DNA of 42,960 bases. Source: Escherichia phage vB_EcoP_P64441. A program made the position numbers and the translations under genes. The stretch is taken from sequence record PQ847473.1. One strand, 5' to 3'. The notes under the pieces were generated by a model. That model was not told where the DNA came from and ran no database searches. It was given only the letters and a program-made list of their open reading frames with translations. Position 1 is the stretch's first letter, and every line of letters starts with the position of its first letter. This document shows positions 12,188 to 32,085 of the stretch, in pieces.

Positions 12188-12249
12188 GTTGGTTGCTACC
12201 CCTTACTATTACCTGTGGTTTCTGAGATACCTGTAGTACATTTAATGAA

Positions 12250-14700
12250 CTAACAGAAAAAGAATCTGCTACCCAGTACCTGCTTAAGGTCCAAAGAACC
12301 TTTAGCTGGTAACTCCAGCCCTTCTAAGTCTGCCCCACAAGCTACTGCCGCATCAGTAATCTCCTGAAGTACGTCATGCTCTGTGTACAGACGTAGGAAC
12401 TGTTCGCGGATAGCAGAATGCATTTCATCTACATCGCAAGCGTGAGTAGCTACCGAGTCGTGGATAGGCATAATGTCTCCTGAGAATGCAGAGATAGTCA
12501 TACCTAAGTGAGTAGCGTCTAAGCTGTGCACCCAATTAGGGGAGATGCCTGACTTAGCCTTACGCTTGTTGTTTACATTGTAGTTACGGTTGTACACCAG
12601 CAGGTGTGTCAGGTTCATGCTCTTAACAGAAACCTTAGTCTCTTCTGATTCAGTGTATCGGTTGATAACCAGCCCGCCTAACGGAGTCTTCCATTGAAGG
12701 TGGTTGGCTGCTGGTACACGATAGCACAGTGACTGTACATATTTCATCGCCTCAGTAGCTGCTGGGTTAGCGTCCTCTACTGCTGCCTTCATGCGAGTAC
12801 TCAGATATCCTGCCAGCTTGAACAGGCTGTACTCTTCCGTCCCTTCGTAACCTTCTTCCTGTGCAGACTGAAGGATGTACTCTGAGCAAGAGCGCACAGT
12901 AGCCGAGTATACGTGTGTCATGCATGGACGTTTAGCCATGCTGCGGGTAATCTCGTTCCCACGCCAGTAGTTAGCCTGCACTACGAAGTCAGGATTGTCC
13001 AGGTCCATGATGACCTTAGCATCAGTACGGCGCTTAACGTCCATGTACATATCTGCTTTCTCTTCGTTACCCTCCCAGAACAGGTTAACTAAACGACCAC
13101 CTACTGAGTCACGCAGTAACGCGGCGAAGTGCTGCTGCCCCGAGTTGGTTGCATCCATAGCCACCGGAATGCGTGATTCGTATGTTTCCGGGCTGCCCGA
13201 GTCAATAGCAGCAACGAGGTCGATGCAGGCTGCCAGAAAACACCACGGGCTGTCTGCACTCCTGAAAGCTTCTGCATTAAACGGATTTGATGCGACAAGT
13301 CGAATCTGCTCGATATTAGCATCAGTCCAAGCTGCACGCTTTTCGAATAAGGCTTTATCATAACCATAGCAGGTAGCGACGTGTACCTTGAGCCAAAACA
13401 AACCCCGCTCTCCCAGAGGCTTTGCCCGACTGAAGGAGAGCAAAGCTTTCTGCATGTCAGGACCCTGAGGGTGCAGGCTTGATTTGAAGTACAGGCGGTA
13501 GCGCCAGTCAACGCAGGTTGGGAAGTACAGTTCTTTCTCATCCTTAAACTCCTCGCAGAGTTGAACCAGTGTCACCATGGAACGCAACTTACTTACGCGA
13601 GTACGCTCTTGGATGTACCAGTTACGCATATTCATCTTCCAAGTCTGGAAGTCATCCATCTGGCGCTCGGTGTAATCCTCTTTAGGTACACCGTCCAGAT
13701 ACCACTCAGGTTTAGGGGCTGGGTAGGAACTAGGCATACCTGTCGTTACACCTTCACGACGTGCTTGGTTAAGCAGATTAAGTACTTCCTTGTTGATAAC
13801 GTAAGGCACTTCCTGCGCCTTGTTCAGCATATCCTTCAGTCCCTCTGCCTGCTTGAATGCCTCTGCTACTTCACGTTTCATTGCACGAGTAATCTGGTGA
13901 TTATGGTAAGTACCGCGCTTGCAAGTGCTGCTTAGAAGGTATCCACCTGAGAACATGTCTACATGCTTCTGCGGAGGTACAATCATTGGGGGTTTAATCT
14001 CTACGGTATCTGCGTCCAGTACTAAATCGCCTAGTACCTCAGCTAATACTTCAGACGGTGCCAAGTATTGTAGCTGGGTTGCGTCAGTGCTCTTATCCCA
14101 CGTGAACAGGCCTGTTTCCCACACAGGTTGTAGGATTAATTTACCTACTGCTACACACTGAGAAGCGGACCAAGGTTCATGCCCGTAGTGCACATTCTCT
14201 GCTGAAGCACGTAAGGTCTTCATAATATGCGACTGACTTGTAGTGTTACGTTCTTTCAAGTACTCAAATACACGATTCATATATGCGGGTGCAACTACTT
14301 CTAACTGTATGCTAAGGACCTCGGCTTGAACCTGGCGCCCTAGGCTAGCCAGCAAAGCTTGTGCAGATGTACGGCTTCCACCAGACTCTTTAAGGAAGAG
14401 GGAGTCAATGCATTTAGTGAGTGCCATTACAGCGAGAACGTCAGTAGGGACCAGACGGATAATGCTGCGGTACTTACCGCCGACGCCTGCGGTCTTCTGT
14501 GCCTTCATCTCGTCAATGCCTTGAGCAACAGTATCATAGGCTGCTGCAATCATGCGACTTACCTTAGGCAGGCTGCTTAAGTTACCTGCTGCCAGTGCCT
14601 TCTGCACCAGCTCACGCGACTTGTTCAGGCTACGAGTGCGGTAATCTTTCTCTAGCTGTAACTGGCGTTCTACTTTCTGTTCTAATGTTTCGTGTTGCAT
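12250..14700 (-). CDS. T7-like single-subunit DNA-dependent RNA polymerase
   Basis: 816 aa. 'MDATNSGQQHFAALLRDSVGGRLVNL' matches the T7 RNAP motif A region '[25 protein letters not shown]'. 'IHDSVATHA' matches motif C (HDSFG). The C-terminus 'LGSRFFFC' parallels T7 'ESDFAFA'. Confidence 0.9.
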   Translation of the reverse strand: MQHETLEQKVERQLQLEKDYRTRSLNKSRELVQKALAAGNLSSLPKVSRMIAAAYDTVAQGIDEMKAQKTAGVGGKYRSIIRLVPTDVLAVMALTKCIDSLFLKESGGSRTSAQALLASLGRQVQAEVLSIQLEVVAPAYMNRVFEYLKERNTTSQSHIMKTLRASAENVHYGHEPWSASQCVAVGKLILQPVWETGLFTWDKSTDATQLQYLAPSEVLAEVLGDLVLDADTVEIKPPMIVPPQKHVDMFSGGYLLSSTCKRGTYHNHQITRAMKREVAEAFKQAEGLKDMLNKAQEVPYVINKEVLNLLNQARREGVTTGMPSSYPAPKPEWYLDGVPKEDYTERQMDDFQTWKMNMRNWYIQERTRVSKLRSMVTLVQLCEEFKDEKELYFPTCVDWRYRLYFKSSLHPQGPDMQKALLSFSRAKPLGERGLFWLKVHVATCYGYDKALFEKRAAWTDANIEQIRLVASNPFNAEAFRSADSPWCFLAACIDLVAAIDSGSPETYESRIPVAMDATNSGQQHFAALLRDSVGGRLVNLFWEGNEEKADMYMDVKRRTDAKVIMDLDNPDFVVQANYWRGNEITRSMAKRPCMTHVYSATVRSCSEYILQSAQEEGYEGTEEYSLFKLAGYLSTRMKAAVEDANPAATEAMKYVQSLCYRVPAANHLQWKTPLGGLVINRYTESEETKVSVKSMNLTHLLVYNRNYNVNNKRKAKSGISPNWVHSLDATHLGMTISAFSGDIMPIHDSVATHACDVDEMHSAIREQFLRLYTEHDVLQEITDAAVACGADLEGLELPAKGSLDLKQVLGSRFFFC

Positions 14701-14739: not shown

Positions 14740-15504
14740 TTACTGGTTTGCTAGGAACACTGCCTTAGCAAACCCTCTTGGAGTTAATGAGCGAATTACT
14801 TTAGTCTTAACAGATTTACCGCCCAGTTTACTATGTTGGGCGCTGTACCCTGCTTCCACTTCTACAGGTTTAACTTCAGGTATATTAAAACCATTACCTA
14901 CCCATAAGCACGTCTTCTTAGGATAAGCGTCCCGTGGCTTTATATAGTCTGGGAACTCAGGATGACTGTCGTCAGTATCCAAATAGCCGCCATACTGGTA
15001 TGGGTGAAAGGAGTAGTCCGGCTTACGCCACTTACTACTCAGTACACTTACTGGATTCTCAATCATGTAAGGTACAGCGTACTTATCCCCTAAGATAGCA
15101 GCTAGCTTAGCCGTAGCTACTGCCTTGTTCTGTACCTCTGGGTCTTTAGCTATCTTAGCTGCAAAGTGCGCGGCGCCGCTTACTGCTAAGTCAGTACATG
15201 GAGGGAATGCGAGTATTAAATCAGGCGTCTCTTCAAAATCAAATGAACTATCTAACCACACGTTAACGTATGTAATATTAAGGTGCTTAACCTTAATACC
15301 ACTATAAGGCCCGTGGTCGGCATCGTCAGAGTTAAAGCAGTAGCACTTGTAACCGGCCTCAGCGAAGGGAAGAACAGCATACCCTGAACCGTCAAATAAA
15401 GACCATACAACTTTACCCATAATTACCTCACTTGGACTCGCGTCCCTTCCAAATCTGATAAAGCTCTTCGTAATCCTTAGCTGCTGCCGTGTCTCCACGC
15501 TCAA
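14740..15504 (-). CDS. Putative SAM-dependent DNA (cytosine-5) methyltransferase-like protein
   Basis: 'SLFDGSGYA' resembles C5-methyltransferase motif I (FxGxG), 'FPPCTDLAVSG' motif IV (PC), and 'YMIENPVSV' motif VI (ENV). Only 254 aa, so a full target-recognition domain is doubtful. Confidence 0.4.
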   Translation of the reverse strand: MSVETRQQLRITKSFIRFGRDASPSEVIMGKVVWSLFDGSGYAVLPFAEAGYKCYCFNSDDADHGPYSGIKVKHLNITYVNVWLDSSFDFEETPDLILAFPPCTDLAVSGAAHFAAKIAKDPEVQNKAVATAKLAAILGDKYAVPYMIENPVSVLSSKWRKPDYSFHPYQYGGYLDTDDSHPEFPDYIKPRDAYPKKTCLWVGNGFNIPEVKPVEVEAGYSAQHSKLGGKSVKTKVIRSLTPRGFAKAVFLANQ

Positions 15505-20489: not shown

Positions 20490-21071
20490 TTATTCGCTTA
20501 CATTAACCCAATCAGGACGCTCACCCTTACCGCAGTAAAAGTCAATCAGGTCTAGTAAGCGTGGATAATACTTCAGCGAACTCTTACCGTCCATTTCCGC
20601 AACCTGGCGCTTACTGAAGCTGCGCCACTCTGCTGCCGTATGCTGCTGACATCCTACACGCACTATGTCATTACAGATACTAATGAAGTACGTTTCTCCG
20701 TATATAATGACAGTCTTGGCGCCGCGCAGGTCAGCGCGGCGCAGGTTAGCGCTGCGCAGGTCAGCTTCGCGCAGGTCAGCGTCGCGCAGGTCAGTGCCGG
20801 TCAGGTCAGCGCCGCGCAGGTCAGCGCCGCGCAGGTCAACGTCGCGCAGGTCAGCGCCGCTCAGGTCAGCGCCGCGCAGGTCAGTGCCGGTCAGGTCAGC
20901 GCCGCGCAGGTTAGCGTAGCGCAGGTTAGCGCCGCGCAGGTCAACGTCGCGCAGGTTAGCACTGCTCAGGTCAGCGTCGCGCAGGTCAGCGTCGCGCAGG
21001 TTAGCGCGGCGCAGGTCAACGCTGTGCAGTCTTCCTAACTTATACTTTTCGCAGATTTCTTGATAGTTCAT
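20490..21071 (-). CDS. Pentapeptide-repeat protein 2 (about 22 A(D/N)LxG/R-type repeats plus a roughly 75-aa non-repeat C-terminal domain)
   Basis: '[56 protein letters not shown]...' is a continuous pentapeptide repeat as in Qnr/MfpA DNA mimics. Encoded by a 15-bp tandem DNA repeat. The N-terminus is paralogous to 27205..27741. Confidence 0.8.
20718..21030. repeat. 15-bp tandem repeat array (coding; pentapeptide repeats)
   Basis: Units such as 'gcgcaggtcagcgcc' / 'gcgcaggttagcgcc' repeated about 20 times. Confidence 0.9.
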
Positions 21072-21111
21072 AGTTAACCTATATGTAAAGAATTATTTAT
21101 TACTGGACAAA

Positions 21112-21160
21112 TCCTGATATTCATGATATAATAAAACCCTTCCTACGCAGGGCTACACCT
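21112..21160. repeat. Copy B of the conserved ~45-bp element (inverted relative to 1418..1482)
   Basis: Plus strand 'catgatataataaaacccttcctacgcagggctacacct' is the reverse complement of the match at 1438-1482. Confidence 0.5.
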
Positions 21161-21347
21161 ACTTCTCCACAACTTCATACTCAGAGGGTGCAAAAGTAAA
21201 CTCCTCATCTTCATCTCCTAAATCAACCTCTCCTGTGTCAGGGAAGAACTCATATACTTCGTGAACACTGCCTACCGGGAATCTATCCATGTACTCGAAC
21301 ATCTCGCCTACACCATATGCACTGTAGTTAAGAATGCGAACTTTCAT
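21159..21347 (-). CDS. Hypothetical small acidic protein (62 aa)
   Basis: 'DTGEVDLGDEDEEFTFAPSEYEVVEK' is strongly acidic. First ORF downstream of promoter P1. Confidence 0.4.
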   Translation of the reverse strand: MKVRILNYSAYGVGEMFEYMDRFPVGSVHEVYEFFPDTGEVDLGDEDEEFTFAPSEYEVVEK

Positions 21348-21461
21348 ATTGAATCCTCTTAAGTCTGCAACCTCACCGCGAAGTTGCTTAACTAAGAGAC
21401 TTCCTTAGCGAGCCTTATTTCTCTTAGACTCTTATCTACATCGCACTGTATTACCTGTGCA

Positions 21462-21512
21462 CGGGAGGAACCGCTCAAGCTCGTACTATCTACCCAGAGC
21501 TTTCAGGAGGGC
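21462..21512 (-). promoter_or_regulatory. Conserved leader element copy 1 (6-bp stem AAGCTC/GAGCTT, 14-nt loop with invariant GGGTAGATA on the transcribed strand)
   Basis: Flanks 'gggaggaaccgctc' and 'caggagggca' are conserved with the copies at 28797-28850 and 30337-30391. The stem sequence differs between copies but pairing is kept. Confidence 0.55.
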
Positions 21513-21579
21513 ACCGGGATTAAAGTCCCCGGTGACTATCAATCCGCTTTGCTATCTGCATCTCGTCTTGATGAAATGA

Positions 21580-21607
21580 ATTCTACAGCATTCTAAAACT
21601 GTGTCAA
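21580..21607 (-). promoter_or_regulatory. Sigma70-like promoter P1 (TTGACA-16 nt-TAGAAT) reading the minus strand
   Basis: Minus strand 'gtgTTGACAcagttttagaatgctgTAGAATtc'. Sits between the DNA polymerase gene and the 62-aa ORF. Confidence 0.5.
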
Positions 21608-21619
21608 CACTTATTTTAA

Positions 21620-22807
21620 TTAAATTACCATCTCCCCTTTAAAGGACTTACCAATCTCACATTCAGCGGGAAACTTAACTTCAGACAGTATGCCAAAGTT
21701 AGGCCACAGCTGTAGCATCCTATCACGGGCTCCTTCCATAACGTTTTTGATGAGCTTACCCGCCTTACGGGCCGTCTCTTCGTCAGCACAATCTATGTAC
21801 AAACAGTCATGGACGGTAACCAGCAAACACCATTTACCCCCCATCCAATTGTCAGCTATACCAGCCCTCATAGCCATTCCGGTTGCAATAAGCATAAGCA
21901 GGGAACCTGATCCTTGAAACGGATAGTTAGCCATCTCTGTGGGCTTAAAGTCCATTACCTGCTTACCTTCGCGCCACACCGGCTTCTGACGGAAGCGGTA
22001 GCGAGTACCGCAAGGCGTAGTGAAGTAGCCCTCGCGATAGATACGCCAGCTGCCGTCATCTGCTTGTTCACGGCGTATAGGCTCCAGCAGCGCAGTACGG
22101 TTTACTTCAGCTGCAATGACATCCCTGTACTTAATAGACTCAGGGAATAGTGCCTCCTCGTTAGCTAAGAACTTCTCAGCGTCGGCTAAGCTAGCACCTG
22201 AGGCGAACGCCAGTCCTTTAGCGGATGCTCCATATTGTGCTGCGAAGCTGAAGGTTTTGATGGCTGTTCGCTTCTTCTTCCATCCTTTATGGTCCGGTGC
22301 ATCCAGGTTATGGCAAAGCTCGTAGACTTCTTCATAAGGCATACCTTCTTGGAATGCTAGACGATAGCAGTGCATATCCGTACCGGCTTCAAGCAAGCTC
22401 AGTAATTTCTTATCACCAGTGATTACACAGCCCATTACAACCTCCATAGCTGAGTAGTCACACTGTGCAATCATACCCTGCTCACCATAGCGGCTACGCA
22501 GAATCTGCTTAACCTTAGACTCACGCGGCAGCTGCTGCATGTTCGGGTTAGATGTTGACAGGCGTCCGGTAGTAGTTGAGCAGTGATTCGACCTGTGGTG
22601 AATGATGCCAGAACCATCTGCTGATGTAGGGATGACGTACGGCAGCATGCCCGTCACCTTACGCAGACTGCCATCCTTATTAGTCTCACGTACTTCATAG
22701 AAGCCGAGGTCCTTCTGGCGTGTAGTCATTTCTTTGTATGTTTTGAAGAAGTCTGAAGCTAACTTAGCCATCTTGTTCCATCCCAATAAAATAATGTGCA
22801 AGGTCAT
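21620..22807 (-). CDS. DNA polymerase (family A), polymerase-domain ORF
   Basis: 'GRLSTSNPNMQQLP' (pre-motif A), 'CDYSAMEVV' (motif A, DYSxxE), 'RTAIKTFSFAAQYGAS' (motif B), 'VTVHDCLYID' (motif C, HD). Overlaps the upstream exonuclease-domain ORF by 44 nt in the +1 frame. Confidence 0.8.
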   Translation of the reverse strand: MTLHIILLGWNKMAKLASDFFKTYKEMTTRQKDLGFYEVRETNKDGSLRKVTGMLPYVIPTSADGSGIIHHRSNHCSTTTGRLSTSNPNMQQLPRESKVKQILRSRYGEQGMIAQCDYSAMEVVMGCVITGDKKLLSLLEAGTDMHCYRLAFQEGMPYEEVYELCHNLDAPDHKGWKKKRTAIKTFSFAAQYGASAKGLAFASGASLADAEKFLANEEALFPESIKYRDVIAAEVNRTALLEPIRREQADDGSWRIYREGYFTTPCGTRYRFRQKPVWREGKQVMDFKPTEMANYPFQGSGSLLMLIATGMAMRAGIADNWMGGKWCLLVTVHDCLYIDCADEETARKAGKLIKNVMEGARDRMLQLWPNFGILSEVKFPAECEIGKSFKGEMVI

Positions 22808-23915
22808 TCATTGCGTCCATTCCTGTGCTGTACACAGGGCTACCATCCGCTAATGTTTGAGCACCTTTGTATTCACCGCGGTCTCCGTACTTCTCACGTA
22901 GAGACTGAGGTAGGTCCTGAATATTAACCAGCCCGTCGAAGCGGTACAGGCGTTCACCCCACTTCATAGCTTGCTCGTCAGTGTCTACTTTTATGAACTT
23001 AGGCATACCCTTATTACGCCCAGACTTATACACCCCGTCCTGTACTTCCTTCTTAATGTATTTAGGTGGGTCATAAGGAACCTTGCACTTGTACTTAACC
23101 GTGCCGCCATACACTAAAGCGGACATATGATAACCGCTATTCCATTTAAACTCGAAGCCCTCTGGCAATTCTGGCAAGAATGTCTGAAGTAACTCCCGCA
23201 GATTCCGAATAGCGTCCTCCTGCTCCTTCTGATTAGCTCTGGCTGTAGGCATATCAACGTACACGCCATTGAACTCACAGTATGCCAGAGCTGCGACTGC
23301 CTCCATCCTTTCCCAGACCATAGGCATCTGTCCACGTTCCGCAAATACTGCGCATTGCCCGTAGAAGCACAGCGCTGTGTTGACTATGTCACCGTTAGGC
23401 CCTGTTAAGTATTCATGTAGTAGCATAGGGTCAATGTCTGCTGTCAGAACCCCTTGCTGCCATAGTAGCTTAACGCCGTCGACTTTGTGTGACCCGCCAT
23501 ACTTAGGGGCAGTCTCATCTAGTGACGGGTAAAGATTCTGGAAGTCGCTGGCAATGTACTCGCCCTGCATAGTATCAAAGACTCGACCTCCTCGTCTAAG
23601 GAACGACTCGAACTGCTCACGGGCAAAGGTCAGCGCCCAGCTAATCTCGTACGCTGCGTTGTGCGCTACGATTAACCACGTATCATCCTGAATAGGTAGC
23701 CACTGCTTAGGGTCAGCTGCTAAGAAATCAGTTCGGGATTCATAGCGTACACTCTGCACCTCGCTGCACTGTACAGTCCCATCCGGCATAGTCCTATCGA
23801 TGCGGAAGCCTGATTCTACGATGTAGTTATCAGGGCAGTACGGAGTTGCGACCCCGCCGTAGTACGGATGATTTTGAGTTTCAATATCCCAAATTAGAAT
23901 GCTACTCATTTCCAA
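22764..23915 (-). CDS. DNA polymerase (family A), N-terminal 3'-5' exonuclease-domain ORF
   Basis: 'LIWDIETQ' is an Exo I (DxE) motif. Contiguous with the polymerase-domain ORF. The called start at 23915 is TTG; a likely ATG start lies at 23909 (MSSILIWDIET). Confidence 0.7.
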   Translation of the reverse strand: MEMSSILIWDIETQNHPYYGGVATPYCPDNYIVESGFRIDRTMPDGTVQCSEVQSVRYESRTDFLAADPKQWLPIQDDTWLIVAHNAAYEISWALTFAREQFESFLRRGGRVFDTMQGEYIASDFQNLYPSLDETAPKYGGSHKVDGVKLLWQQGVLTADIDPMLLHEYLTGPNGDIVNTALCFYGQCAVFAERGQMPMVWERMEAVAALAYCEFNGVYVDMPTARANQKEQEDAIRNLRELLQTFLPELPEGFEFKWNSGYHMSALVYGGTVKYKCKVPYDPPKYIKKEVQDGVYKSGRNKGMPKFIKVDTDEQAMKWGERLYRFDGLVNIQDLPQSLREKYGDRGEYKGAQTLADGSPVYSTGMDAMNDLAHYFIGMEQDG

Positions 23916-24047: not shown

Positions 24048-24203
24048 TGCTTTAGCATTGTTATTCACCTCACCTTTAAGGCCAGCTAGATGGGATTTAA
24101 GGCACTCGACTAACTCAACAATAGTATCCTCATCCAGTTCGAACATTCCTGAATCCCCCTGCTCCAACTCTATTAATTTTAAAGCTGCTTCATGTAATGT
24201 CAT
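24048..24203 (-). CDS. Small ORF (about 52 aa), below the track threshold
   Basis: Hand translation of the minus strand gives 'MTLHEAALKLIELEQGDSGMFELDEDTIVELVECLKSHLAGLKGEVNNNAKAK'. Acidic. Unverified. Confidence 0.25.
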
Positions 24204-27204: not shown

Positions 27205-27741
27205 TTAGATACTAACCCAATCAGCGACGCGCAGGTCAGCGTCGCGCAGGTCAGTGCCGGTCAGGTCAGCGCCGCGCAGGTCAGCGCCGCGCAGGTTAGC
27301 GCCAATCAGGTTAGCGTCGCGCAGGTTAGCGCCGCTCAGGTCAGCGCCGCGCAGGTTAGCGCCGCGCAGGTTAGCGCCGTGCAGGTCAGCGCTGCGCAGG
27401 TCAGCGCCGCTCAGGTCAGCGCCGCTCAGGTCAGCGATGTTCAGGTCAGCGTAGCGCAGGTCAGCGCCGCGCAGGTCAGCGCCGCTCAGGTCAGCGCCGC
27501 GCAGGTTAGCGCCAATCAGGTTAGCGTCGCGCAGCTTAGCGTCGCTCAGGTCAGCGACGCGCAGGTCAGCGTCGCTCAGGTCAGCGTAGCGCAGGTCAGC
27601 GCCGCTCAGGTCAGCGCCGCGCAGGTCAGCGTCGAGCAGGTTAGCGCGGCGCAGGTCAGCGCCGCACAGGTCAGCGCCGCACAGGTCAGCGCCTTCCAAG
27701 GATTCCAACTTGTATTTATTACAGATATTGTCATAAGTCAT
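27205..27741 (-). CDS. Pentapeptide-repeat protein 1 (about 30 contiguous pentapeptide repeats)
   Basis: '[44 protein letters not shown]...' runs almost to the C-terminus. Likely start is the ATG at 27741 (MTYDNICNKYKL) with a GAGG ribosome-binding site; the track ORF extends to 27792. Confidence 0.8.
   Translation of the reverse strand: MTYDNICNKYKLESLEGADLCGADLCGADLRRANLLDADLRGADLSGADLRYADLSDADLRVADLSDAKLRDANLIGANLRGADLSGADLRGADLRYADLNIADLSGADLSGADLRSADLHGANLRGANLRGADLSGANLRDANLIGANLRGADLRGADLTGTDLRDADLRVADWVSI
27225..27695. repeat. 15-bp tandem repeat array (coding; pentapeptide repeats)
   Basis: About 30 units of 'gcgcaggtcagcgcc'-type repeats. Near-identical at the DNA level to the array at 20718-21030. 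Confidence 0.9.
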
Positions 27742-27751
27742 ATTAGTAACC

Positions 27752-27991
27752 TCAGTTAATTTTAATATTAAAACGTGCACAATACCCTTCAAGGGTCATC
27801 CCTACTTTAGCTGCTTTAAGACTGTAAGCTAACTTAAGAGCTTCCTTAGCGTCATGCTCACGAGCCAGCTTCTCAATCGTTACTTCATCATTACGCATCA
27901 GAATCATTTCGGGGTTCCGGTTAATCATTTCTGCATCTCCAGTTTGAAAAGGGCCATTGCAGCGTTCAGGCGAAACGCGGGTTGCATTCAT
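27752..27991 (-). CDS. Hypothetical protein (79 aa)
   Basis: ORF only. Confidence 0.3.
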   Translation of the reverse strand: MNATRVSPERCNGPFQTGDAEMINRNPEMILMRNDEVTIEKLAREHDAKEALKLAYSLKAAKVGMTLEGYCARFNIKIN

Positions 27992-28048
27992 TGTTAATCA
28001 GGAAAGTGTGATAAGCCTTAGCAATCTGCTGTGCTTTCTGTTGCTGTG

Positions 28049-28261
28049 TCATTCTAAATTCCTCTGTAAGTAATACATGTATACTTCACGAGCTCGCATT
28101 TTAGCGTAATCTTCGCAATGCCCTCTCTTAATCGCAGCAAGGTAAGTTTCGGTAGCCGCCTTCCGAGCGCATGTCTTTACATAAGAGTTAAACCAGTTAT
28201 TAAAGCCCATCATTTTGTAATCCTCTGTAGAAGTAAGTTTGCTGACGCTGACGTTTCTCAT
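28049..28261 (-). CDS. Hypothetical protein (70 aa)
   Basis: ORF only. Confidence 0.3.
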   Translation of the reverse strand: MRNVSVSKLTSTEDYKMMGFNNWFNSYVKTCARKAATETYLAAIKRGHCEDYAKMRAREVYMYYLQRNLE

Positions 28262-28375
28262 TAAGGTAGGCGCTAGCTTCGTTAGCTGCCCCGCCTGTCA
28301 GGAATTCGAAAAGCTTGAACATCTCAGCTTCACGTTGACGCTCAACCTCAACTGTCTGGCTAGTTTGACCGACCA

Positions 28376-28702
28376 TTATTTAACTCCTTTCGGTGTAGAA
28401 GACTTAGATTTAAAATAACTGTTAATGCGCTGGCAAGTCTTGCTACTAGGGCGGCAAGTGCGTTCACCACGTTCTTTGTACTCAGCGCTCTTAGCACTGC
28501 GCTGAGAGGCTTTATCTGACCAGTCATTACTAGGAATGGCTTCTGCTTTATAAGTATGCGTCATGAGCTTCTTAAGAGCTTTACGGGCCTCAGTACCCTC
28601 AGGCTTCTGTGCCAGCTGAACTAATTCACTACGATTAGCTTCTAACTTCTTAGCATCTTCAACAGAGATACCGAAACGACGTGCTTGAGCTTTAGCGTTC
28701 AT
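28376..28702 (-). CDS. Hypothetical basic protein (108 aa)
   Basis: Lys/Arg/Ser-rich. First ORF downstream of promoter P2 and its leader. Confidence 0.4.
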   Translation of the reverse strand: MNAKAQARRFGISVEDAKKLEANRSELVQLAQKPEGTEARKALKKLMTHTYKAEAIPSNDWSDKASQRSAKSAEYKERGERTCRPSSKTCQRINSYFKSKSSTPKGVK

Positions 28703-28796
28703 CTTAACTCCTTAGTGGTTTTATTAAAGCCCTCCGCAGAAGGCTTTGTAAAACTACTTTAGTTTCTTTCATCTCAGACCCACTGAATTATCCGTG

Positions 28797-28850
28797 GACG
28801 GGAGGAACCGCTCGAGCCTGTTCTATCTACCCTAGGCTCTCAGAAGGGCA
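28797..28850 (-). promoter_or_regulatory. Conserved leader element copy 2 (stem GAGCCT/AGGCTC, loop with GGGTAGATA)
   Basis: Plus strand 'gacgggaggaaccgctcGAGCCTgttctatctaccctAGGCTCtcagaagggca'. Confidence 0.55.
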
Positions 28851-28890
28851 ATCACTTAGCGTTGTTGATTAACGTCCTGCTATGAATCCA

Positions 28891-28918
28891 ACTATACTCC
28901 TATTTTATTTTGTGTCAA
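28891..28918 (-). promoter_or_regulatory. Sigma70-like promoter P2 (TTGACA-16 nt-TATAGT) reading the minus strand
   Basis: Minus strand 'gtgTTGACAcaaaataaaataggagTATAGTtgg'. Confidence 0.5.
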
Positions 28919-28921
28919 CAC

Positions 28922-29587
28922 TTATTTTGAAATTCTTTCTGAAATATACACAAATCCCTTAGGAGTAAACTGCGCAGAGATGCGTGCAACCTTTAATCTG
29001 TCAAAAGTAACCTTATGCTCCCCACGTTTAGCCTTTAGCCAGCCTGCACTGAATGTCCACGTACCATTCAATTTATACATATGCTTATTCTCTACCAGCC
29101 AACTTCTTACTTCAGCTTCAGTGTAAGATAAGAACTTACACATCTCACGTAAAGTCATAAGACCTGTAGTATCTACATAGTTACCTACGAACTCAACCTT
29201 AGGCGCTGCTTCTTCTACCTTCTCTTGGAGCTTCAAGTTCTCTTCTGCGTAGTTCTGGAGAAGTCCCAGCAACTGCTTAGGGTCATGCAAGTTAATAGTA
29301 GGCTGACGTTGCTTACGCTCCAGCTCTTCCCAACGGTCAATGATACGGGCGCGCAGTTCTACATTGTAGCCAGAGATAACAAGCAATGTATCACGTTTAG
29401 TTAAATGCCACTCGCGCTGTTGCTGATTATTATATCCGGCGTAAGTTACTGATTTACTTGATTGGCTCAAAACTGAGCCAATGCTTTCAATGTCCCTAAG
29501 TACGTTCTTATGCAACTTACCAGTCAGCTCAGCAATCTCGCGGCTAGTCATGGTCTGTACATCAGTAGTAGTAGTTAAATCAAACAT
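28922..29587 (-). CDS. Rha-family phage regulatory protein-like
   Basis: N-terminal 'QTMTSREIAELTGKLHKNVLRDIESI' resembles the Rha-domain signature (MSSREIAELTGK.H..VLRDI). Confidence 0.6.
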   Translation of the reverse strand: MFDLTTTTDVQTMTSREIAELTGKLHKNVLRDIESIGSVLSQSSKSVTYAGYNNQQQREWHLTKRDTLLVISGYNVELRARIIDRWEELERKQRQPTINLHDPKQLLGLLQNYAEENLKLQEKVEEAAPKVEFVGNYVDTTGLMTLREMCKFLSYTEAEVRSWLVENKHMYKLNGTWTFSAGWLKAKRGEHKVTFDRLKVARISAQFTPKGFVYISERISK

Positions 29588-29838
29588 TACATAGTCCCCA
29601 TAGAATCAACAAAGCAAGCAACAACGATAGTCTTATCTTCATAAGGCATAGCCTCGACACTGTTGAGAGTGTCTACAAGGTCCTTCAGCTCGATACCTTG
29701 TGTGTACGCCCACTTACCCCAGTTGCACAGCTCAATACTGTTAGGCGCTGCTTTAGACGGGTTACAGTACACCATAGCCGCAGTACCTACCAGTGCCGCA
29801 CAGAACCAGATTTTAAACGTATTCAGTTTCATATACAC
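29587..29838 (-). CDS. Small secreted protein (signal peptide) of unknown function
   Basis: 'MYMKLNTFKIWFCAALVGTAAMVYC' has a hydrophobic N-terminal signal-like segment. 83 aa. Confidence 0.4.
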   Translation of the reverse strand: MYMKLNTFKIWFCAALVGTAAMVYCNPSKAAPNSIELCNWGKWAYTQGIELKDLVDTLNSVEAMPYEDKTIVVACFVDSMGTM

Positions 29839-29933
29839 CTCAGGAGAGTAGTTGTATTAAGCCGTAAATGGCTAAGAAAGGTGCTGCTACCTGCAACAGC
29901 ATTAAAGGGATGATGAACAGCATGTACAGTGCA

Positions 29934-30272
29934 TTACGCATTATGTGCATTCTCCTCACAATACTGTAACGCAAAGCGCAGCAATTCATTATACAGCGAA
30001 GTAGTCAGAATCCCTTCATTATAGTACTCAGCCTCATGTTTACGGACAGTATCCTTAGCAATGCATGCTACCTTCAGACTGCACCCTGTAGCCTGCATAA
30101 GGCTGCGTACAAGCTGTGTATCCTTATAAGCTTTCTTAGCATGCCATTTAACAGCGCTTACTGCTGCACCTACAACAACCATACCACCCATCACGACAAA
30201 GCCAATTGCACTAGACATATCATATACCTTTAATTCTGTACCCTCGCAGCGAGGATACTTAACTAAAGACAT
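29934..30272 (-). CDS. Small membrane protein of unknown function
   Basis: 'AIGFVVMGGMVVVGAAVSAV' is a single predicted transmembrane segment. 112 aa. Confidence 0.4.
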   Translation of the reverse strand: MSLVKYPRCEGTELKVYDMSSAIGFVVMGGMVVVGAAVSAVKWHAKKAYKDTQLVRSLMQATGCSLKVACIAKDTVRKHEAEYYNEGILTTSLYNELLRFALQYCEENAHNA

Positions 30273-30336
30273 CTTAGCGAAGCTCTTGTCTCTTCAATCT
30301 AGTGAGCTTCTCATCTATTCCCTCTGTATAATCCGA

Positions 30337-30391
30337 GGACGCTAGGTAACGCTCAGAACCTGTTTATCTACCCCGGTTCTTCAGAAGGGCA
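30337..30391 (-). promoter_or_regulatory. Conserved leader element copy 3 (stem AGAACC/GGTTCT, loop with GGGTAGATA)
   Basis: Plus strand 'ggacgctaggtaacgctcAGAACCtgtttatctaccccGGTTCTtcagaagggca'. Confidence 0.55.
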
Positions 30392-30430
30392 ACCAGTTAT
30401 CGTATCTGGCTAACGTCTTGCTATGTACTG

Positions 30431-30459
30431 ACTATACTTCTACAAAACAGGTAAGTCAA
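30431..30459 (-). promoter_or_regulatory. Sigma70-like promoter P3 (TTGACT-17 nt-TATAGT) reading the minus strand
   Basis: Minus strand 'TTGACTtacctgttttgtagaagTATAGT'. Confidence 0.5.
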
Positions 30460-30633: not shown

Positions 30634-30747
30634 ATTACCTTTAAACGCATACATCTCACACAGCTTGCACCAGTAATGAAAGTACCCGTTCATATCACCT
30701 ATATCAGCGCATACCTCTACCATCTTCTCTAAATACTCTCGAGTCAT
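30634..30747 (-). CDS. Micro-ORF (38 aa), paralogue of 30466..30612
   Basis: Hand translation 'MTREYLEKMVEVCADIGDMNGYFHYWCKLCEMYAFKGN'. Its 5' leader ('caacacatagtaataggagataattgagac') is near-identical to the leader of the 244-aa gene at 31539-31572. Confidence 0.4.
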
Positions 30748-30803
30748 GTCTCAATTATCTCCTATTACTATGTGTTGTGCGGAGGCTCTCGCCGAACGCA
30801 CCC

Positions 30804-31538
30804 TTACCTACGCTGTTGCTGCATCCATTCGTACAACTCACCCTGCGACCACTTAACCTGACGCGCTGTAGCGCCCTTAGTAGTCTCTTTAATCTCTTCA
30901 TACTCTACTACAGCATCCTTACTATGTATATACGTAGTACTATCATTACTTAGTATACTGCGCTCATACTCCTTCTTACTAAGCTCCGGCTTAGACTCAT
31001 GCTTCAGCCACTCATTATGTCTAGCATCAAGCATTGCATCTATCTCTAGTGCTAAAGCATCCAACGGCTCAGCGTCTATCCAATCCCTGTCCTCGCACCA
31101 CGTAGGGTTAAGATAGAGGCTATCATCCATATACCGCTTATCCTTCCTAGCGTTGTACTGCTTGTAATGCGCTGTAGCCTCATTAACTGCGCTCAGTACA
31201 GTACCAGCACGCTGCATAGTCTTAAGCCCTGCATAGCCTCTACTACGTCCTTCTAAGTAATCGTTCATGAGATTGTAATGCTTCAACTGGAAGTCATCAC
31301 TGTATGCCCAAGCCAGCACTACATCCTGCATCTTCAACGTAGCATCAGCTACAGCTATTATATTACGCCTAGCTACAGGCTTCTTATCGCTCCTAGCAGG
31401 CTTACTAGTACCTAAAGCAGCGTATGCCTCATCTTTAGTTAAGTACCAGTCATCACCTACTACATACACATTACAGCGCTTCCCATCTATAGTCTTCTTA
31501 CTGCGCTTCATCAATGTACCCGTCTCTTGCTTAGTCAT
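30804..31538 (-). CDS. Hypothetical early protein (244 aa); first gene after the putative left end
   Basis: ORF with an AGGGGA ribosome-binding site. No recognisable motif. Confidence 0.5.
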   Translation of the reverse strand: MTKQETGTLMKRSKKTIDGKRCNVYVVGDDWYLTKDEAYAALGTSKPARSDKKPVARRNIIAVADATLKMQDVVLAWAYSDDFQLKHYNLMNDYLEGRSRGYAGLKTMQRAGTVLSAVNEATAHYKQYNARKDKRYMDDSLYLNPTWCEDRDWIDAEPLDALALEIDAMLDARHNEWLKHESKPELSKKEYERSILSNDSTTYIHSKDAVVEYEEIKETTKGATARQVKWSQGELYEWMQQQRR

Positions 31539-31539
31539 A

Positions 31540-32085
31540 ATGTCTCAATTATCCCCTACTATTATGTGTTGGTAGTGTATTGGCTGTGACTCACCTTATT
31601 GTTAAAAGCTGTACAACTAATACACCAACTAATACAACTACCCGCAGCATAACACAGCACTAACCCTGCGTCAACCATTGCACAGCCTGGAAGCAAAAGA
31701 GGTAAGCCTAACGATACACCTGCACTACCTCTGACTCTCTACTGCGGATAAAATAGGCAAGAGCAGAGAGGACAGCATCTCCCTGTGCTCCACAAAATAG
31801 GCAAGACTAACCTCTCCCGCACCCTCAACAGAGAGCGCAGAGACAGCCAGCCAAGCCAGGTCCTGCCAGAGATACGCAGAGGCACCCCCTACCCTCCCTC
31901 CAGAAGATTCCCAGAGGCCGCCCCTACGGGGGGAACAGCGCGTTGGTCGGGTGAAGGAGGCCCTCGCGTGAGTATAATAAATTCAAGGTGCCTGTTTACA
32001 CTTGCAATCCTGAGCTATGTATGCTATGCCAAAGGATTCCCCAGAGATTCCAGGGGATTCCATTAGCAATTTCTCTAGCTATTCC
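31540..32085. other. Non-coding region, candidate genome-end / terminal-repeat region (collapsed in this circular assembly)
   Basis: About 550 bp with no credible ORF, lying between the last late gene and the first early gene. Contains short direct repeats ('aaaataggcaaga' twice, 'actaatacaNc' twice) and G/C-rich tracts ('ccctccctcc', 'cccctacgggggg'). Confidence 0.35.

Follow-up and report, generated by a model that had tools for sequence, protein, structure and literature searches.

Phages of the phiKMV/KP34 type place the gene of their own RNA polymerase last in the early/middle block, an arrangement that bears on how the host polymerase gets there. Escherichia phage vB_EcoP_P64441 (PQ847473.1) shares with phiKMV- and KP34-like phages a plan in which the RNA polymerase gene ends the DNA-metabolism module and the early and middle genes are left to the host polymerase (PMC10914365, PMC4411677). 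In LUZ19, dependence of early and middle genes on the host enzyme has been reported (PMC10914365). P64441 also carries a host-type promoter sequence, P1, directly behind its DNA polymerase gene, and a preliminary description made from the sequence had proposed that it may ensure expression of the phage RNA polymerase. What, then, does P1 serve at this locus? The answer developed here is that P1 is probably a functional host sigma-70 promoter, the third and relocated copy of the left-end promoter-leader cassette of the Slopekvirinae, with a leader that would act in cis.

P1 and its place in the genome

The window, i.e. the whole stretch of 42,960 nucleotides that was analysed, is a complete, circularly permuted genome with identical 127-bp repeats at its two ends; the phage belongs to the Slopekvirinae and shares about 80% identity with Escherichia phage PAS7. 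The phiKDA1 counterpart of the first early gene (31538..30804), as identified by alignment, is likewise the first gene of that phage and starts 512 bp from its left end. Because the window is circularly permuted, this alignment places P1 at about 10.4 kb from the true left end, and the 21.6 kb into the genome first ascribed to it is an artefact of the permutation, whereas the coordinates and the sequence of the site stand. On the same scale, the related promoters P2 and P3 lie at about 3.1 kb and 1.5 kb, and the start of the phage RNA polymerase gene falls at about 17.3 kb. All long gene-like ORFs of the window are on the minus strand, at most 6.8% of the window falls outside minus-strand ORFs of at least 40 codons (ORF map), and the promoter-leader regions of P1, P2 and P3 account for the three longest gaps without coding sequence in the early/middle region. 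The elements of P1 are the following.

21580..21607, minus strand: P1 core promoter, with the -35 box TTGACA (21607..21602), a 16-nt spacer and the -10 box TAGAAT (21585..21580)
21608..21626, minus strand: A/T-rich flank upstream of P1, UP element-like, AATTTAATTAAAATAAGTG
21564..21573, minus strand: predicted transcription start at the CA of the conserved CAUCAAGACG, 7-8 nt past the -10 box

The near-consensus boxes were correctly described; they lie on the minus (coding) strand and match the sigma-70 consensus (TTGACA / TATAAT) at 11 of 12 positions. P1 is co-oriented with the genes and lies in a 272-nt gap between the stop of the DNA polymerase gene (21620) and an ATG at 21347; it begins 13 nt past that stop codon, in agreement with the placement downstream of this gene given at the outset. 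The sequence AAAATAAGTG just before TTGAC is common to P1, P2, copy b of PAS7 and the P1 and P2 homologues of ECO104/S.Kent, and a CAU(A/C) motif is found 6-8 nt past the -10 box in all copies of P1, P2 and P3 and in their homologues. The weak points of P1 as a promoter are its 16-nt spacer, the G at the third position of the -10 box and the lack of an extended -10.

The consensus match by itself is modest evidence of a promoter. Sites matching at 10 or more of 12 positions are not enriched in the window (7 seen against 7.6 +/- 2.7 in 200 dinucleotide shuffles), while those matching at 11 or more are enriched about seven-fold (4 against 0.57 +/- 0.78, with a shuffle maximum of 4). Three of these four, namely P1, P2 and an antisense site, fall in gaps of the ORF map, and the fourth (1495..1467) is found just after an 898-aa gene (1516..4212), under a short and probably spurious ORF. 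Another site of 10 of 12 positions (24203..24176) was rejected as a promoter, its 'ATGACA' being the start of a small ORF.

As judged from genome comparison, the conservation of P1 among relatives is strong. A promoter occupies the P1 locus in all relatives examined, i.e. PAS7 (L001, 10229), ECO104 4-5-2 (L003, 5493), S.Kent 1-2-1 (L004, 22336) and two metagenomic relatives (L006, 9308 on the minus strand, and L019, 4186). Across these five other genome sequences, two of which are nearly identical in the P1 region, the -35 box TTGACA is invariant and the -10 box reads TAnnnT, while the spacers have diverged. All relatives keep a second tandem promoter at this locus that the P64441 copy has lost. 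The second tandem promoter is about 82% identical in some 80 Klebsiella phage records. Conservation extends to P2 and P3, which have counterparts in PAS7, L008 and ECO104/S.Kent. Taken with the sequence of the boxes, this pattern makes P1 very probably a real host-type (sigma-70) promoter.

It is highly improbable that P1 is a chance consensus match within a sequence conserved for another reason, either as a site for the phage polymerase or as a transcription-primed origin like T7 phi1.1A/B. The lack of overall enrichment of sites of 10 or more positions would fit such a view, and the tandem promoters that follow a replication gene in the relatives recall the primary origin of T7. Nevertheless, the hexamers are kept while the spacers turn over, P1 does not resemble the KP34 polymerase promoter, no A/T-rich origin-like tract follows P1, and the GC-skew profile, used as a replication-origin test, is monotonic and uninformative.

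KP34 carries its strong phage promoters at the left end, downstream of the polymerase gene and within the late region (PMC6834552). In P64441, the KP34-type motif TRATGTTACAGGAGTA has no convincing match in the window, and the sole candidate for a KP34-like phage-polymerase promoter lies right after the RNA polymerase gene, where the sequence AATGTACTACAGGTAT is unique in the window. A 32-nt hairpin repeated twice in KP34 has been ruled out as a phage promoter (PMC6834552), and this element is distinct from the leader module described below.

A leader repeated behind three promoters

P2 and P3 were found where the preliminary description had put them.

28703..28918, minus strand: P2 and its leader; P2 at 28918..28891, TTGACA-16-TATAGT, 11 of 12 positions; 5' module at 28853..28776
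30219..30459, minus strand: P3 and its leader; P3 at 30459..30431, TTGACT-17-TATAGT, 10 of 12 positions; 5' module at 30394..30317

The three promoters share the upstream A/T-rich flank and are each followed by a leader of about 200 nt, and the leaders share a 106-nt repeat (family D3) of three copies. The shared leader element noted early on is therefore real, and it was understated, being a covarying RNA with a candidate pseudoknot that is found across the subfamily. The genes after the leaders are mutually unrelated, so the role of the leader would concern the transcript and not any one gene. In PAS7, a 56-codon ORF separates the P3 homologue from its leader, and the element thus need not sit at the 5' end. 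The parts of the P1 leader are listed below.

21512..21534, minus strand: first leader hairpin of the P1 copy, CACCGGG...CCCGGUG, at the position of H1 in the other copies
21477..21513, minus strand: candidate H-type pseudoknot composed of PK1 and helix H2, the remaining loop being A-rich
21513..21509 with 21495..21491, minus strand: pseudoknot helix PK1, UGCCC with GGGUA
21502..21497 with 21482..21477, minus strand: pseudoknot helix H2, AAGCUC with GAGCUU
21474..21461, minus strand: leader hairpin H3
21460..21443, minus strand: leader hairpin H4, with covariation
21348..21437, minus strand: 3' module, comprising the GAUAAGAG motif, H5a, GUCUCUUAG, H6 and an outer helix
21400..21392, minus strand: anti-SD-like segment GUCUCUUAG within the 3' module
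21387..21367, minus strand: hairpin H6 within the 3' module

The 5' module is made of the candidate H-type pseudoknot and two hairpins, and compensatory changes support it. In 10 copies, 96.8% of the cells are paired against at most 48% in slid controls, with compensatory changes at 14 of 19 pairs, and a MAFFT alignment that was not fitted to the structure still gives 95% pairing, pseudoknot helix included. H2 is always paired and has compensatory changes at all six of its pairs; H3 is 100% paired and H4 98%, the latter in the versions CCAC/GUGG, GCAC/GUGC, CCUC/GAGG and ACAC/GUGU. As for PK1, a MAFFT alignment that takes in 11 copies and two genera has 94.5% of the cells paired, with double changes at 3 of 5 pairs, and the register remains constant through the versions UGCCC/GGGUA, CGCCC/GGGUG, UGGUCC/GGACCA, UGGCAU/GUGCCA and GGGUC/GGCCC. 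The pairing of this upstream strand with the loop of the next hairpin is thus a strong candidate for a pseudoknot on covariation grounds; in any single copy it is not significant against shuffles. The thermodynamics of the leader fold are moderate (z of -1.2 to -3.0).

H1 covaries in the other copies (AACCG, AAUCA, CCGA, AGCCAG, CCGG, AGCGG(G)). The first hairpin of the P1 copy differs from it because about 110 nt, the second tandem promoter included, are missing in comparison with L006. A long-range helix between CCCUUCUG and CAGAGGG was dropped, since it clashes with the covarying H4 and involves invariant bases only.

The 3' module is common to P1, P3, PAS7, ECO104, phiKDA1 and EhYP. The consensus fold of its alignment (A6) has 24 pairs, 16 of which undergo compensatory changes. 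In this fold, the outer helix pairs with the Shine-Dalgarno region AAGAGGA (~21360..21354) and is stacked on H6, giving a predicted irregular and covarying hairpin of about 20 bp by the ribosome-binding site. Behind P3, the module extends to the ATG at 30218. The P2 leader is devoid of it and has instead a hairpin, AAAGCCUUCUGCGGAGGGCUUU, upstream of the Shine-Dalgarno sequence.

Covariance models R1 and R2, in which H2, H3 and H4 are paired, define this Slopekvirinae early-leader RNA. With R1, three copies and no more are detected in the window (125-136 bits), as are three in PAS7; the P1 copy, which was in the training set, reaches 124.6 bits with this model and 84 bits with R2. Among untrained copies, R2 recovers one in KP34 at 1109-1186 (26.4 bits, E = 1e-5), between the annotated host promoter (931-959) and gene 1, and another in EhYP (20.9 bits). 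KP34 therefore has, like P64441, a homologue of the 5' module in the leader of an early host promoter. More generally, the module recurs in left-end leaders of Koutsourovirus and KP34 phages, which suggests that P1 is a relocated copy of the early promoter-leader cassette of the subfamily. ECO104, S.Kent and L019 have a different 5' module behind the same promoters, so this part appears exchangeable.

The leader has no match in Rfam 15 at the gathering threshold over the whole window and only noise in E-value mode for the three leaders, and the family was not found in the literature searched. An exact-pattern search retrieved only two real contigs from IMG/VR (L006 and L008), and scans of metagenomes and GTDB gave chance matches only. 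ARAGORN detected neither tRNA nor tmRNA in the window. Host mimicry by the leader was rejected, as a blastn comparison of the P3 leader with 5,426 E. coli genomes gave no match.

These data bear on the idea that the 5' module is released as an abundant 5' UTR-derived small RNA, which would target a host factor in trans, either as a decoy or as a regulator, P1 being a third copy for dosage. Three paralogous copies behind strong promoters speak for it, as does the stable hairpin that separates the module from the ribosome-binding site in the P2 copy, and small RNAs derived from 5' UTRs have been reported for several phages, LUZ19 included (PMC10914365). On the contrary, no copy is followed by a proper terminator, the P2 hairpin lacks a U-tract, no target of complementarity was identified and the E. 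coli genomes contain no match, and we regard this explanation as very unlikely.

Genes and signals downstream of P1

The segment that follows the leader comprises a small gene, a hairpin and an opposing promoter; the phage RNA polymerase gene comes much further on.

21159..21347, minus strand: first gene of the P1 unit, encoding a 62-aa acidic protein without Pfam match that matches phrog_6862
21125..21154, minus strand: weak terminator-like hairpin followed by UUUUAUUAUAU, directly 3' of the 62-aa ORF
21104..21132, plus strand: convergent antisense sigma-70-type promoter Pas, TGGACA-17-TGaTATAAT
14700..12250, minus strand: T7-type phage RNA polymerase gene, downstream of P1

The phrog_6862 family is without assigned function. 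In PAS7, L006 and L019, the P1 leader is followed by a homologue of the 62-aa ORF; in ECO104/S.Kent, a different small ORF intervenes between the leader and the homologue. The hairpin after the ORF has a 6-bp stem (-9.6 kcal/mol, z = -1.06) and an interrupted U-tract, and its L019 version folds no better than shuffled sequence. Pas is near-perfect and lies about 450 bp downstream of P1; its -10 and extended -10 are invariant, with diverged spacers, in PAS7, ECO104, L006 (12/12) and L019 (12/12).

The genes beyond were identified, largely as first described, as those of a pentapeptide-repeat protein, a metallophosphoesterase, HNH and endonuclease VII nucleases and the T7-type RNA polymerase. 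For the methyltransferase label of 15504..14740, Pfam gives no support. That the RNA polymerase gene comes late in the module was rightly recognized; it is the last one, and the gene order matches that of KP34 and phiKDA1. No promoter of its own was seen for the pentapeptide-repeat gene. The pentapeptide-repeat fold is known as a DNA mimic; the literature searched on phage pentapeptide-repeat proteins and on rifampicin sensitivity in phiKMV-like phages yielded nothing decisive.

The proposal that P1 secures the expression of the RNA polymerase gene meets with obstacles, and the genomic data rather suggest a supplementary role. In the window, no strong terminator was found upstream of P1, P2 or P3 or from P2/P3 to P1, and P1 would thus be dispensable for re-initiation. 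Moreover, phiKDA1 and KP34 have neither the P1 cassette nor the pentapeptide-repeat gene behind it, and yet their polymerase gene has the same late position. The hairpin with its U-tract and the convergent Pas after the 62-codon ORF could limit read-through from P1.

A self-contained cassette is accordingly conceivable, in which P1 would drive only the 62-aa protein and possibly pentapeptide-repeat protein 2; this early unit would have an accessory or anti-defence function, the hairpin with its U-tract and the antisense promoter would insulate it, and nothing meaningful would reach the RNA polymerase gene. We consider this possible, with some doubt. The layout (promoter, leader, small ORF, hairpin with U-tract, opposing promoter) fits, and so do the absence of the cassette and of the pentapeptide-repeat gene from phiKDA1 and KP34 and the nature of the cargo, a small acidic protein and a pentapeptide-repeat protein. 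However, the hairpin is weak and its structure is not conserved in L019, no strong intrinsic terminator was found between P1 and 12250, the end of the polymerase gene, and the pentapeptide-repeat gene would be left without a visible promoter. The unit recalls the morons of lambdoid phages, which are promoter-gene-terminator inserts, in that P1, leader, 62-aa ORF and hairpin form an insert absent from sister genera. It differs from them in belonging to a lytic phage, in its weak terminator, in its co-orientation within an operon-like gene array and in its leader, a copy of the phage's own early leader.

We favour P1 as a functional relocated copy of the early cassette. Transcription would begin at about 21573/21572, and the transcript is predicted to open with a leader of about 225 nt consisting of a hairpin, the H-type pseudoknot with its A-rich loop, two hairpins and the 3' module, whose outer helix would pair with the ribosome-binding site of the first gene. 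P1 would fire early under the host polymerase and mainly express the 62-aa acidic protein, with pentapeptide-repeat protein 2 produced by read-through of the weak hairpin. It would also help the host polymerase to transcribe the middle genes as far as the RNA polymerase gene, a contribution that would be supplementary and not essential.

Possible functions of the leader and comparable systems

Most probably, the leader works in cis, on the early RNA as it is being made. The 3' module may be a site of processing that also gates translation, in the manner of R0.3, the RNase III site that precedes T7 gene 0.3, and the 5' pseudoknot module may protect the RNA or condition elongation. The T7 region with promoters A1, A2 and A3 and R0.3 has in common with P64441 strong sigma-70 promoters, in tandem in the relatives of P64441, and a long, untranslated and structured leader that ends just before the first early gene. 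In contrast, the T7 early promoters form a left-end cluster only, whereas the P64441 cassette is present threefold, once about 10 kb in, and its pseudoknot module is without T7 counterpart. T7 also has the minor E. coli promoters B, C, D and E, host-type promoters away from the left end. These are weak, have no known role and share no leader, unlike P1, which is near-consensus, conserved and part of a repeated cassette. In the same way, P1 stands apart from the host promoters of LUZ19 (P002-P006), the one relative with mapped starts, where all of them are at the left end, and from those of KP34-like phages, predicted only at the left end.

Another comparison is offered by the putL and putR sites of HK022, paralogous structured RNAs which, like the leader, lie just after early host-type promoters and act independently of the following gene. 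They consist of two stem-loops without pseudoknot, and no likeness to the leader in sequence or structure was found; no inverted repeat was found for locating the put sites in HK022. By analogy with put or with Bacillus EAR, the leader could be a cis-acting processive antiterminator or anti-Rho RNA, which would bind or condition the very host polymerase that transcribed it and let this enzyme cross many kb as far as the phage polymerase gene. This would agree with a leader that follows P1, P2 and P3, even at a distance when an ORF intervenes, whatever the downstream gene, and with terminator-like hairpins within or after the units. The host polymerase has about 17 kb to cover, and long-range polymerase processivity has been proposed to sustain transcription in phiKMV-like phages (PMC10914365). 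Nevertheless, we find it unlikely: R1 run with filters off on HK022 27500-30200, the immunity region with putL and putR, gives a best match of 6.2 bits (E = 0.46), the search for strong terminators that such an RNA would have to override found none, and ECO104-type phages have a different sequence in place of the 5' module. Likenesses to the RfaH ops element (GGCGGTAGnnTG versus GGGTAGATA) and to rrn boxA (UGCUCUUUAACAA versus UGCCCUUCUGAAG) are weak and partial and were rejected, phiKDA1 retaining only the pairing potential.

A more far-reaching form of this idea, to which we give little credence, would place the leader in a new class among cis-acting RNAs, one by which the host RNA polymerase is reprogrammed through processive antitermination or Rho resistance, with P1 as a relay copy and Pas as an off-switch. 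If true, the host polymerase would draw in about 17 kb of DNA and transcribe it as far as the phage polymerase gene, and P1 would be a half-way relay reloading modified polymerases in virulent T7-like phages.

Under our preferred reading of P1 as a relocated early cassette, the P64441 lineage has spread three promoter-leader copies over 10 kb, one of which faces a conserved antisense promoter. Its leader, covarying, with a candidate pseudoknot and absent from Rfam, is common to Cepavirus-like, Koutsourovirus and KP34 phages, which include many therapy candidates against Klebsiella and E. coli, and it offers a testable handle on early RNA control in these phages. Phage engineering may also draw on the cassette for promoters that are strong and compact and for 5' UTR parts.

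Position and conservation of P1

The minus strand carries every long gene-like ORF of the window. The two ends of the window (1-127 and 42834-42960) are exact 127-bp copies of each other. Since the full set of T7-like phage functional modules was also found, the window represents a complete phage genome, about 42.8 kb long and circularly permuted. We infer that the 127-bp repeat is most likely an assembler overlap of a permuted contig and not a physical terminal repeat; the true ends are expected at about 31.6-32.08 kb, in non-coding, G+C-rich sequence. Among database records, Escherichia phage vB_EcoP_PAS7 is closest, with about 80% identity across half of the 20-32 kb region. PAS7 belongs to the Autographiviridae, Slopekvirinae, and the new genus Cepavirus was proposed for it (PMC11522302). 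The first early gene (31538..30804) aligns to the first forward-strand gene of phage phiKDA1, 512 bp from the mapped left end of that phage, which places the left end of the present genome near 32.0 kb. P3 is then about 1.5 kb from the left end, P2 about 3.1 kb, P1 about 10.4 kb and the RNA polymerase gene (14700..12250) about 17.3 kb. The preliminary description had placed P1 21.6 kb into the genome, a coordinate artefact of the permuted window, and had correctly put it downstream of the DNA polymerase gene: P1 starts 13 nt past the stop codon of the C-terminal polymerase ORF (21620..22807, minus strand), named by homology with the annotated PAS7 gene. This polymerase is encoded by two overlapping minus-strand ORFs (21620-22807 and 22764-23915), as in PAS7; in phiKDA1 and in KP34 it is the product of a single gene. 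Upstream of P3, two early ORFs share a 32-nt direct repeat (30746-30777 and 31540-31571, 91% identical) that spans their ribosome-binding sites and start codons.

The motifs of P2 and P3 were both found where they had been described:

21607..21580, minus strand: P1, TTGACA, 16-nt spacer cagttttagaatgctg, TAGAAT; 11/12 against the sigma-70 consensus
28918..28891, minus strand: P2, TTGACA-16-TATAGT
30459..30431, minus strand: P3, TTGACT-17-TATAGT

An A/T-rich stretch, AATTTAATTAAAATAAGTG, lies directly upstream of P1. Sites matching at least 10/12 consensus positions are not in excess in the window (7 vs 7.6 +/- 2.7 in shuffles), whereas those matching at least 11/12 are enriched (4 vs 0.57 +/- 0.78). 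Three of these four fall in gaps of an ORF map built from minus-strand ORFs of 40 codons or more, outside which lies at most 6.8% of the window; the fourth (1495..1467), just past an 898-aa gene, is covered by a short, probably spurious ORF. In the early and middle region, the three longest non-coding gaps are the three promoter-leader regions. The consensus match by itself is only partly convincing, and the comparative evidence is decisive. In PAS7, ECO104 4-5-2, S.Kent 1-2-1 and the metagenomic relatives L006 and L019, both IMG/VR contigs, a promoter sits immediately behind the DNA polymerase gene or behind an HNH gene that has been inserted at this point. In these homologues TTGACA is invariant, the -10 box is TATAGT or TATATT and the spacers are almost wholly different; P2 and P3 follow the same pattern. 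Moreover, every promoter copy carries a CAU(A/C) motif 6-8 nt past the -10 box, at the expected transcription start, where the conserved leader begins. Conserved hexamers with diverged spacers, together with this motif, indicate that P1 is very probably a working host-type promoter.

Origin of the P1 locus

The P1 locus of all relatives contains tandem promoters, with promoter B about 115 nt downstream of promoter A and followed by the leader. Such tandem pairs are located at:

L001 (PAS7): 10229-10375
L003 (ECO104 4-5-2): 5493-5640
L006 (metagenomic relative): 9308..9155
L019 (metagenomic relative): 4186-4345
L002 (further relative): 1878-2045

Promoter A is TTGACA-17-TATAGT, followed by a short transcribed hairpin with a GNRA loop, and promoter B is TTGACAAGCAGTAACGAAGTAAGTAAGAT. 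The element between them is conserved and its GNRA-capped hairpin covaries (ACCG-GAAA-CGGU vs CCCG-GUAA-CGGG). The window retains promoter A only. It lacks about 110 nt, among them promoter B and the hairpin that usually comes first, and another hairpin (21534..21512) adjoins the remaining leader. Promoter B is about 82% identical in some 80 Klebsiella phage records, in some of which it is annotated as the host promoter; records that begin at the left end have it at about 1 kb. It follows that the early promoter region found at the left end in this subfamily has been copied to the P1 locus.

The RNA polymerase gene of phiKDA1 and KP34 occupies the same late position as in the window, yet neither phage has a cassette behind its DNA polymerase gene. 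The five host promoters mapped in LUZ19 are all at the left end (PMC10914365), and predictions for KP34-like phages placed host promoters nowhere else (PMC4411677). The location of P1 behind the DNA polymerase gene is thus a lineage-specific variation.

Structure and spread of the leader RNA

The three leader copies of the window share a 106-nt core (repeat family D3). A covariance model built from these and the three PAS7 copies recovered all six, and no others in the two genomes, at 123-146 bits; L006 and L008, both from IMG/VR, gave three further copies, and phiKDA1 matched weakly. Across the 10 copies, in an alignment fitted to the model, 96.8% of cells are paired, vs at most 48% with partners slid, and compensatory double changes occur in 14/19 pairs; in helix H2 pairing is complete (100%) and each of the six pairs has changes. 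In addition, Koutsourovirus copies (phiKDA1, SDFMU_Pec, KKP 3828, Entb_48 and EhYP) were segmented manually. In every case the H2 loop begins with bases that can pair with the strand 5-6 nt upstream of H2, and the remainder of the loop is A-rich:

UGCCC/GGGUA: seven copies
CGCCC/GGGUG: copy b of both PAS7 and L008, where C-G replaces U-A within the genus
UGGUCC/GGACCA: phiKDA1
UGGCAU/GUGCCA: SDFMU_Pec
UGGCGU/GUGCCA: KKP 3828
GGGUC/GGCCC: Entb_48
GGUC/GGCC: EhYP

When 11 copies were aligned with MAFFT alone, pairing reached 94.5% in this pseudoknot helix, where 3/5 pairs had double changes, and 95% over the whole structure, vs at most 50% when slid. The 5' module is accordingly a strong candidate for holding an H-type pseudoknot because the register is constant across lineages; in no single copy is the pairing significant against shuffled loops. 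A second model, made from the MAFFT alignment, found untrained copies in EhYP and in KP34 (1109-1186, 26.4 bits, E about 1e-5), the latter between an annotated host promoter (931-959) and gene 1. The H2 loop of the KP34 copy has its own internal hairpin (CGGGGC...GCCCCG), which could compete with an upstream GGGGC for the pseudoknot pairing and permit alternative folds.

P1 and P3 have the 3' part of the leader and P2 lacks it; ECO104, phiKDA1 and EhYP share it. It comprises two covarying hairpins and an outer helix pairing GUCUCUUAG with the Shine-Dalgarno region, with compensatory changes in 16/24 pairs. Taken alone, the leader folding energies are unremarkable (z = -1.7, -1.2 and -3.0). The leader had no match in Rfam 15 or in E. 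coli genomes and no description in the literature searched; neither tRNA nor tmRNA is present.

The genes behind the leader copies are mutually unrelated:

P1: 62-aa acidic protein
P2: 108-aa protein
P3: hydrophobic protein
PAS7 copy a: 33-aa membrane peptide
L008 copy a: protein with a kinase-like N-terminus

Furthermore, a 56-codon ORF separates the P3 homologue of PAS7 from its leader, and in ECO104, S.Kent and L019 the promoters and the 3' module are retained next to a different 5' module. Together these comparisons show that the leader is modular and goes with transcription units, not with one particular gene, and that a 5'-end position is not required. A small hydrophobic peptide gene (...PFLAIYGLI...; window 29840-29950, minus strand) falls below the 60-aa ORF listing, and its 33-codon PAS7 homologue (1274-1375), directly following a leader copy, is unannotated.

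As host polymerase must cover 17 kb, a put-like antitermination RNA is an attractive explanation of the leader that finds no direct support: the HK022 put region has no similarity to it, and no strong terminators are present to override. The favoured reading is that the leader acts in cis on the nascent early RNA, where its 5' module, with the pseudoknot, may make the RNA more stable or influence elongation. The 3' module looks like a processing or translation gate and is comparable to RNase III site R0.3, which lies in front of T7 gene 0.3.

Predicted transcription from P1 and the convergent promoter

Host polymerase would start at about 21573 and would express the 62-aa protein early, together with pentapeptide-repeat protein 2, while adding to middle-gene transcription. 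Downstream of P1 the window contains, in order:

21347..21159, minus strand: 62-aa ORF, first gene downstream of P1
21154..21125, minus strand: 6-bp hairpin, then UUUUAUUAUAU; -9.6 kcal/mol, z = -1.06
21104-21132, plus strand: antisense sigma-70-type promoter TGGACA-17-TGaTATAAT, 11/12 plus extended -10, between the 62-aa ORF and the pentapeptide-repeat gene
Next: pentapeptide-repeat protein 2, metallophosphoesterase, HNH endonuclease
Then: exonuclease homologue (PAS7 annotation name), endonuclease VII, 254-aa protein without Pfam match, RNA polymerase
1515..1435, minus strand: second copy of the ~75-nt element that carries the antisense promoter; promoter 1495..1467, TTGACG-17-TGaTATAAT, then AAAACCCTTCCnnCGCnGGG

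No convincing intrinsic terminator was found between 21125 and 12250, so read-through from P1 to the polymerase gene is possible. Within the window, no terminator was found upstream of P1, P2 or P3 either, and RNA polymerases started at P3 or P2 can also reach this gene. P1 looks like a booster for the RNA polymerase gene, not a necessity.

The antisense promoter faces P1 about 450 bp away. Its homologues are TGTACA-17-TGcTATAAT in PAS7, TGTACA-17-TGtTATAAT in ECO104 and a perfect TTGACA-17-TGcTATAAT (12/12 plus extended -10) in L006 and L019, with diverged spacers. The second copy of the ~75-nt element forms the other arm of an inverted repeat, 19.6 kb away. Located just past the internal virion protein B gene, on the late region's coding strand, it has its promoter reading sense and is nearly identical in PAS7, ECO104 and S.Kent. 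It is thus a putative host-type promoter inside the structural module. Through its hairpin, the P1-side copy might also be read as a sense-strand terminator; since the promoter hexamers are conserved and this hairpin is not structurally conserved, a promoter is better supported. Convergent transcription from this promoter could limit or time read-through from P1, which weakens the earlier idea that P1 secures polymerase gene expression.

Sigma-70 promoters are ordinary elements of T7-like phages, and as one of them P1 is unsurprising in itself. What is unusual is its position, its origin by duplication of the left-end cassette, the candidate pseudoknotted leader without Rfam match and the conserved convergent partner; experiments are merited by the convergent promoter pair and by the family of leader RNAs.

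The two pentapeptide-repeat genes (20490-21071 and 27205-27792, minus strand) contain 15-nt periodic DNA repeats that create long spurious plus-strand ORFs; the PAS7 homologue, annotated on the opposite strand as 'modular polyketide synthase', looks like a mis-annotation. Directly past the RNA polymerase stop codon, AATGTACTACAGGTAT (12227-12242, minus strand) is unique in the window, and PAS7 differs at this site; KP34 has a strong phage-polymerase promoter, TAATGTTACAGGAGTA, in the same relative place, to which the window sequence bears a loose resemblance.
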